This document shows positions 20,572 through 20,795 of a DNA stretch of 34,970 nucleotides, one piece after another; position 1 is the first letter of the stretch, and each line of letters starts with the position of its first letter. Below the pieces are notes generated by a model. The model did no database searches. It was not told where the DNA came from and saw nothing but the letters and a program-made list of their open reading frames with translations. Position numbers and translations under genes: made by a program. This DNA comes from a virus (lineage: Duplodnaviria; Heunggongvirae; Uroviricota; Caudoviricetes), in IMG/VR virus record IMGVR_UViG_2529292908_000012, one strand, 5' to 3'.

Positions 20572-20676
20572 TCAGTTCCCTAGTCGATCCATCAAAAACA
20601 CAACCAGGCAGTAAACGCCCACAACAGCAATAACAGCCAGCGCACCTTCCATTGCCAGTGATATATCATCCGACAT
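20572..20676 (-). CDS. 34-aa small hydrophobic peptide
   Basis: MSDDISLAMEGALAVIAVVGVYCLVVFLMDRLGN with strong SD (aaggaggg) 5-6 nt upstream; not in the ORF track. Confidence 0.4.
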   Translation of the reverse strand: MSDDISLAMEGALAVIAVVGVYCLVVFLMDRLGN

Positions 20677-20711
20677 ATTCCCTCCTTTGGTGTTAATCCC
20701 GGCGAACGTTT

Positions 20712-20795
20712 TTACCCCCACCGACAAATAACATATACTAAAAAAGTGATAGCCATAGCAACGCCTGTAATTGCAAATGCTTCAGGCCAGTTCAT
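20712..20795 (-). CDS. 27-aa small hydrophobic peptide, translationally coupled to the DUF551 gene
   Basis: MNWPEAFAITGVAMAITFLVYVICRWG; ATGA overlap with the DUF551 stop; SD aggagg 8 nt upstream. Confidence 0.45.
   Translation of the reverse strand: MNWPEAFAITGVAMAITFLVYVICRWG

Follow-up and report, generated by a model that had tools for sequence, protein, structure and literature searches.

Two conserved small genes encoding predicted membrane peptides are found between a DUF551 gene and hok in lambdoid prophages of Escherichia coli

AcrZ, MgtS, MgrB, KdpF and CydX are membrane micro-proteins of Escherichia coli that are non-toxic and act by binding larger membrane proteins, and gp15 of phage HK97 is a small membrane protein encoded by a moron (an accessory gene) that is responsible for superinfection exclusion. 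Other peptides of similar size, including Ibs, Ldr, TisB, ZorO and Hok, are type I toxins. Here, we describe two small genes, encoding 27 and 34 amino acids (aa), that are found between a gene for a DUF551-domain protein and the toxin gene hok in IMG/VR virus record IMGVR_UViG_2529292908_000012, a Caudoviricetes sequence of 34,970 nucleotides (nt) that is referred to in full as the window. An earlier note on this DNA had described the two open reading frames (ORFs) as hydrophobic, each preceded by a Shine-Dalgarno (SD) sequence, and as forming with hok a run of three small membrane peptides on one strand, with the start of the 27-aa gene overlapping the DUF551 stop codon as ATGA. The coordinates, SD sequences, hydrophobic stretches, overlap and shared minus strand were all as it described (Table 1). 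The note further suggested that the peptides may be additional type I-like toxins, and this suggestion is not supported here. Both ORFs are very likely to be genuine protein-coding genes of a lambdoid prophage and both are likely to encode single-pass membrane peptides. By analogy with the micro-proteins above, we favour on balance a role as non-toxic modulators rather than as toxins.

Both peptides resemble Hok (PF01848 for Hok/Gef, RF01794 for Sok) in that they are small single-helix membrane peptides whose genes share the strand and the prophage accessory region of hok, and the family of the 34-aa peptide is attached to hok. However, they lack a match to PF01848, an overlapping leader frame of the mok type, a sok-like RNA in Rfam searches and a periplasmic domain, and they are openly translated. 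They share with Ibs, Ldr, TisB, ShoB, DinQ and ZorO (described in part in PMC3919570) a length in the range of 18–35 residues and a single hydrophobic helix, but no sequence similarity, long structured 5′ untranslated region (UTR) or partner small RNA (sRNA) was found here and one of the two genes is coupled to a normal gene. The likeness to AcrZ, MgtS, MgrB, KdpF and CydX lies in a length of no more than 50 residues, a single helix and aromatic residues at the membrane interfaces, whereas there is no homology and the genes described here are phage-borne and limited to Escherichia/Shigella prophages. As for HK97 gp15, these are small prophage accessory genes that are expressed in the lysogen and encode a single transmembrane helix (reviewed in PMC11323111), but there is no sequence relationship.

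Full-length homologues of the 27-aa peptide, with 59–67% identity, were found using tblastn in 92 phage records. The carriers include Shiga toxin (Stx) phages of both types (Stx1 and Stx2), BP-4795 and ArgO145, as well as the virulent Vequintavirinae phage Av-05 (121 kb), where the homologue (63% identity, L230:1201-1281) follows a gene for a 220-aa protein, whose stop codon its start overlaps in the same way. Temperate lambdoid phages are therefore not the only carriers of the micro-gene. A degenerate scan of IMG/VR revealed at least 477 loci encoding a 27-aa relative. When 86 distinct contexts were compared, the ATG overlapped the preceding stop codon in 85 (at +4 or +1, as ATGA or TGATG/TAATG), the sole exception having a spacing of +5 and a lost ATG, and a GGAGG-like motif was present at the same position in nearly all. 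The proteins encoded 5′ of the 27-aa ORF are EaA/DUF551-like mosaics, among which at least four unrelated C-terminal modules were found. Of 72 distinct DNA alleles, 70 begin with ATG and 64 have codon 28 as the stop, and the variants of other length that were seen (24 or 25 codons) keep the frame. Synonymous turnover was evident in the same alleles, with all four Gly codons used for the invariant Gly11, four Arg codons for Arg25, TGC or TGT for Cys24, and three or four codons each for Ala13, Ala15 and Ala17. The ratio of non-synonymous to synonymous polymorphism (pN/pS) was 0.44–0.46 in frame, compared to 0.9–1.9 in the off-frames.

The overlap of the frames, together with the SD-like GGAGG shortly 5′ of the stop codon, loosely recalls the prfB frameshift site, and on that basis a frameshift into the 27-aa frame could extend some of the DUF551 protein by a membrane anchor. 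This is extremely improbable. The ATG is retained in nearly all of the alleles, there is no slippery heptamer 5′ of the stop codon, and the frame relation to the upstream gene varies (ATGA versus TGATG/TAATG), so that no single direction of shift fits and a conserved frameshift extension is ruled out.

The earlier note had also remarked that neither gene was in the ORF track. The 27-aa ORF was indeed without annotation in the RefSeq records inspected, but the 34-aa gene is present in RefSeq as WP_001278450.1, a 'hypothetical protein', and its exact sequence is in public protein collections under that kind of name. The 34-aa gene was in this sense already known as an uncharacterised hypothetical protein, and what is new here is modest, namely the 27-aa gene, the linkage of the 34-aa gene to hok and a common unannotated 29-aa relative. 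No mention of WP_001278450 was found in the literature searched by accession.

Direct evidence for translation of the 34-aa gene comes from the ribosome profiling (RIBOseq) study of Huecker et al. 2017 (PLoS One, PMC5597208), in which 465 translated intergenic ORFs were reported in E. coli O157:H7 Sakai. One of them, XECs145, was drawn with an alternative start further upstream, which gives 53 codons, and was predicted to encode a one-helix inner-membrane protein; its C-terminal 34 residues match the 34-aa peptide exactly, and no function, hok linkage or 29-aa homologue was described there. In lysogeny broth (LB), the values for XECs145 were 79 reads per kilobase per million (RPKM) for RNA and 346 RPKM for footprints, with a ribosome coverage value (RCV) of 4.35 and coverage of 0.99, and in the brain heart infusion (BHI) control they were 121 and 150 RPKM, 1.14 and 0.84, respectively (PMC5597208). 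Under cold/osmotic stress in BHI they were 73 and 1.1 RPKM, 0.01 and 0.37, and the mean RCV of short annotated genes in the same study was 1.55 (PMC5597208). The 34-aa gene is therefore well translated in uninduced, growing lysogens. Neither peptide was found in the RIBOseq supplements for strain EDL933 (PMC5331693).

By tblastn and related scans both reading frames are kept in related prophages, and the lack of conservation that the earlier note had named as grounds for giving up its proposal was not seen. Both genes keep their frame, start, SD and stop across diverged homologues and show frame-specific substitutions, though pN/pS does not split off the wobble-sharing antisense frame. Several observations nonetheless weigh against the coding reading. 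A pN/pS of ~0.45 is moderate only, and the wobble-sharing antisense frame, which has no stop codon in any of 54 alleles across the 27-aa region, gave 0.42–0.53. Damaged 27-aa alleles were found in L156 and L318 (L318:736-819), where TGG is changed to TAG at codon 3, and an Asp lies within the helix in at least eight IMG/VR loci (L134 type, MIWPEAFAITGVAIAIDFLVYVICRWG); the 27-aa gene is dispensable. The homologue sets were fetched with patterns anchored on conserved stretches, and the apparent conservation in those stretches is inflated. The Sakai study took only ORFs of at least 30 codons (PMC5597208) and is therefore silent on the 27-aa ORF, leaving direct support for translation to the 34-aa ORF.

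These points bear on a non-coding explanation, in which the 27-aa DNA would mark the junction of modules as a boundary sequence for recombination, the 34-aa DNA would be the upstream part of the hok promoter or an insulator, and translation would be incidental. The 27-aa ORF is found exactly at mosaic junctions, the homology in distant E. coli matches stops at its stop codon and its first seven codons are nearly invariant in DNA, all of which would suit such a role, as would the pseudogenised alleles and the similar pN/pS of the antisense frame. Against it stand the synonymous turnover at invariant residues, such as the four Gly codons at position 11, the length variants that stay in frame, and a start, SD and stop overlap kept across at least four unrelated upstream gene ends. 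Second codon positions are preferentially kept, which preserves hydrophobicity, and ribosome coverage of the 34-aa ORF is full length. As pN/pS is unable to split the sense frame from the wobble-sharing antisense frame, the choice of frame rests on the codon tables, the conservation of start, stop and SD, and the RIBOseq data, and on these we consider the non-coding explanation very unlikely. A 67-codon ORF (20746-20949, plus strand) lies antisense to the 3′ end of the DUF551 gene and the 27-aa gene in the wobble-sharing frame, and is probably a by-product of the codon pattern of the sense strand.

A diverged homologue of the 34-aa gene encodes a 29-aa peptide, LVLKCALAIAAVMAIYCL(A/V)(V/I)VLM(D/E)(R/H)LSD, and has a GGAGG motif and a GTG start. 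It was found in phage Tritos (L126:1517-1604), phage HannyBb (L127:1498-1587) and E. coli S88 (L317, ~3078-3165). The helix and tail are common to the two versions (ALA..AV...YCL...LM[DE][RH]L) and the N-terminus differs. Over 24 aligned codons the DNA is 63–68% identical with the frame kept, and 9–11, 3–4 and 10–13 changes fall at codon positions 1, 2 and 3, respectively, so that second positions change least. The pN/pS of the 34/29-aa family was 0.46 (22 alleles). Of 5426 complete E. coli genomes, 1701 (~31%) contain the DNA of the 29-aa version, which was unannotated in each of the 25 records listed, and the 34-aa version with its 27-aa neighbour is present in 671–673 genomes. In a species-level genome scan the family was restricted to Escherichia/Shigella. 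Three more matches, on short metagenome-bin contigs labelled as other taxa, are probably Escherichia phage DNA. A phmmer search of 1.84 billion representative proteins returned only seven clusters, all 79–100% identical. A possible sigma-70 promoter for the 29-aa version (TTGAAx-N17-CATATT), with conserved hexamers and a variable spacer, was retained only as a lead, since it matches 8 of 12 positions and falls under the scan threshold, and the –35 is absent in some alleles.

In 51 of 53 distinct contexts, the stop codon of the ORF was found 5′ of GGGTGCTTGAGG, the 5′ end of the hok mRNA, at a distance of 45 nt for the 29-aa version and 79 nt for the 34-aa version. The spacing is fixed independently of the upstream DNA, and phages Tritos and HannyBb as well as strain S88 are among the examples. 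The 34/29-aa gene thus has a fixed place just 5′ of the hok promoter in any upstream context. Two contexts keep the peptide gene without hok.

This strict placement raises the possibility that prophage hok/sok has the peptide, or its transcript, as a third component. As a membrane partner of Hok, the peptide would provide immunity, potentiate and time Hok-assisted lysis, or set the threshold of Hok action; alternatively, read-through of its transcript would yield a hok mRNA that is extended at the 5′ end and folds differently. Terminator-like sites were found only within the ORF, and none in the spacer that separates it from the hok promoter. The helix contains an invariant Tyr-Cys-Leu and is followed by the conserved LM[DE][RH]L tail, and Hok likewise has a transmembrane Cys. 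HokW has been reported to aid release of phage Sp5 (PMC8621323). However, the same Hok protein allele was found with the 34-aa version, with the 29-aa version and with neither, the last in 933W/PA45-type phages, and hok/sok therefore functions without the peptide (PMC8621323). This distribution argues against an obligatory role. The linkage may equally reflect co-inheritance of a block of small accessory genes (morons), and the two contexts that lack hok also speak against a third component, which we regard as unlikely.

The two arrangements differ in a segment bounded by an 11-bp direct repeat, GGGTAAAAACG, which is imperfectly extended to ~19 bp. In the 933W/PA45-type Stx phages, the hok mRNA starts 44 nt 3′ of the 27-aa stop codon; in the 933W-type phages a single copy of GGGTAAAAACG leads straight into the hok promoter and the segment is missing. 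In the window type, an extra 175 bp carrying the 34-aa gene and a palindrome is found between two copies. Our first reading of this segment as an insertion was not retained, as it could equally be ancestral, with a deletion between the repeats in the 933W-type phages. The single-copy and two-copy states fit either an insertion or a deletion by recombination between the repeats. As RNA, the palindrome CGATATGGGAATTCCCATATCG would form a 9-bp hairpin with no U tract. In strain E2 (L320:1505-1540), where the 34-aa ORF is cut off after paa, the palindrome and the hok promoter are kept, and the palindrome may be an operator or insulator.

The maximum Kyte-Doolittle hydropathy over 19 residues was 2.32 for the 27-aa peptide and 2.72 for the 34-aa peptide, compared to 3.08 for Hok, with one hydrophobic stretch in each of the small peptides. 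When all 239 ATG-started ORFs of 20–50 codons in the six frames of the window were examined, only two reached a 19-residue hydropathy of 2.4 or more and, of these, only the 34-aa ORF also has an SD. The consensus of the 27-aa peptide, M-x-WPEAF-x3-G-x9-Y-x2-C-R-W-G, includes an invariant N-terminal WPEAF motif and a C-terminal Arg, and aromatic residues lie at both membrane interfaces (W3/F7 and Y21/W26). Its N-terminus is predicted to be outside and its C-terminus inside, because of the positive-inside rule with E5 and R25. Insertion of both peptides into the inner membrane would be consistent with these features.

Small size, hydrophobicity and a single predicted helix of the kind found in Ibs, Ldr, TisB, ZorO and Hok are also what would be expected if both peptides were type I-like toxins silenced by antisense RNAs and forming a toxin cluster with hok, and by hydropathy both are of the small, membrane-inserting kind. 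The genes also lie in a toxin–antitoxin island that includes hok/sok, a Doc-family toxin and a RelE/ParE toxin with a helix-turn-helix (HTH) partner. Opposite-strand promoter-like hexamer pairs were found at 20652-20679 and 20711-20739, and one such site was found 3′ of the 29-aa ORF in phage Tritos. However, these sites are not more frequent than in shuffled sequence (3 found versus 1.5 ± 1.2 expected), and conservation was seen neither between the 34-aa and 29-aa versions (versions 1 and 2) nor in phage HannyBb. Neither peptide matched PF01848 (HOK_GEF) at E-values of up to 10, and Pfam, NCBIfam, PHROGs, PADLOC and PDB sequence searches returned no significant match for either. Sub-threshold matches to POT, OadG-related, SecE and Cmr5 were rejected as hydrophobic noise. 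No Rfam RNA, and hence no Rfam antitoxin RNA, was found over either small ORF; an sRNA of a novel kind may be present. A BLASTn survey of type I toxin–antitoxin loci (PMC11264685) does not cover hok.

Regulation also sets the two genes apart from type I toxins, in which translation is off in growing cells. No hidden ribosome site was found for either gene, the 34-aa gene having a short leader and an exposed, strong SD. With an RCV of 4.35 and coverage of 0.99 in LB-grown Sakai (PMC5597208), it is among the better-translated small ORFs in healthy, growing cells, and the 27-aa gene is coupled to the translation of an ordinary gene. The coupling of the one, and the exposed SD and high occupancy of the other, therefore contradict the defining regulation of type I toxins. 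With no toxin family match and no conserved antisense promoter, we consider it quite unlikely that these are toxins, and the corresponding proposal of the earlier note is not supported.

The reading that we prefer, that of non-toxic modulators, has its own weak points. The RIBOseq occupancy is compatible with toxicity at a higher dose, and 'modulator' is an argument by exclusion and analogy. Under this reading, a ribosome ending the preceding EaA/DUF551-type gene would restart at the overlapping ATG of the 27-aa gene (termination–reinitiation), with the GGAGG within the last codons of the upstream gene helping the restart, and synthesis of the 27-aa peptide would therefore depend on translation of the accessory early operon. 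The 34-aa gene is a member of a peptide family that is physically tied to prophage hok/sok loci and translated in growing lysogens. Both peptides may insert in the inner membrane and bind a larger membrane protein or complex, and they may serve the phage or the lysogen rather than kill the cell, though these last steps are guesses.

A 291-bp query from the window was 100% identical to a lambdoid prophage of E. coli O104:H4. The small-gene cluster is within the rightward early operon, which is on the minus strand of the window and has the order cro, cII, replication genes, DUF1627, DUF977, DUF551, small genes, hok, followed 3′ of hok by genes for a Doc-family toxin and a RelE/HTH pair, then ninB and onward to Q. 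The features of the cluster are listed in Table 1. The hok promoter of the window was spotted by eye, and a promoter scan recovered the equivalent TTGGCG-17-TAGAAT in phages Tritos (L126) and HannyBb (L127). The scan of the window minus strand detected no promoter for the two small genes.

Table 1. Features of the DUF551–hok interval and flanking genes (positions in the window)
Feature	Position	Strand	Details
DUF551-domain gene, 194 aa	20792-21376	-	Pfam PF04448, 74.7 bits; RefSeq WP_000206792.1; cistron upstream of the 27-aa gene
GGAGG SD of 27-aa gene	20803-20807	-	Inside the last DUF551 codons; 7 nt 5′ of the ATG
27-aa gene MNWPEAFAITGVAMAITFLVYVICRWG	20712-20795 (stop included)	-	ATG at 20793-20795 overlaps the DUF551 TGA as ATGA
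Direct repeat GGGTAAAAACG, copy 1	20707-20717	-	Covers the 27-aa stop codon
AAGGAGG SD of 34-aa gene	20681-20687	-	4 nt 5′ of the start; same in all version-1 (34-aa) loci
34-aa gene MSDDISLAMEGALAVIAVVGVYCLVVFLMDRLGN	20572-20676 (stop included)	-	RefSeq WP_001278450.1
Perfect palindrome CGATATGGGAATTCCCATATCG, 22 bp	20542-20563	n/a	Between the 34-aa stop and the hok –35
Direct repeat GGGTAAAAACG, copy 2	20532-20542	-	Directly 5′ of the hok –35
hok promoter, TTTGCG, 17 nt, TAGAAT	20502-20530	-	Spotted by eye
hok mRNA leader	20321-20495	-	Rfam RF01794 (sok), 110.3 bits, E = 2.7e-25; holds the mok start and the Sok-complementary region
hok (HokD-type) toxin coding sequence, 51 aa	20171-20326	-	Pfam PF01848 HOK_GEF, 83.9 bits; RefSeq hokD

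The interval between DUF551 and the nin genes (~18600-20500) contains three adjacent toxin–antitoxin-type modules, namely hok/sok, a 59-aa hypothetical protein with the Doc-family toxin, and the RelE/ParE toxin with the HTH protein. A match to the Rfam sRNA STnc100 (18531-18757, minus strand; 78 bits versus a gathering score of 47) is antisense to the RelE/ParE-family toxin gene (18649-18918, plus strand) in its 5′ part, and the RelE start differs among RefSeq records (258 nt versus 339 nt). A sub-threshold isrK-like match (20081-20162, minus strand; 31 bits versus a gathering score of 50) extends over the 3′ UTR and terminator of hok, and this weak match recurs 3′ of hok in phage Tritos.

Small membrane proteins are systematically missed by annotation, and the 27-aa gene is a clear and widespread example. 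The 34/29-aa family adjoins one of the best-studied toxin–antitoxin loci and is not mentioned in the hokW-sokW study (PMC8621323). Several of the phages that carry these genes also encode Shiga toxin. If Hok or its expression is tuned by the peptide, studies of phage release, abortive infection or persistence with prophage hok/sok may have deleted or cloned the peptide gene unknowingly, and if the peptide is a third component, the textbook two-part hok/sok module would be a three-part module in many prophages. If both genes are only accessory morons, they would still be two well-defined additions to the small set of phage micro-protein candidates.

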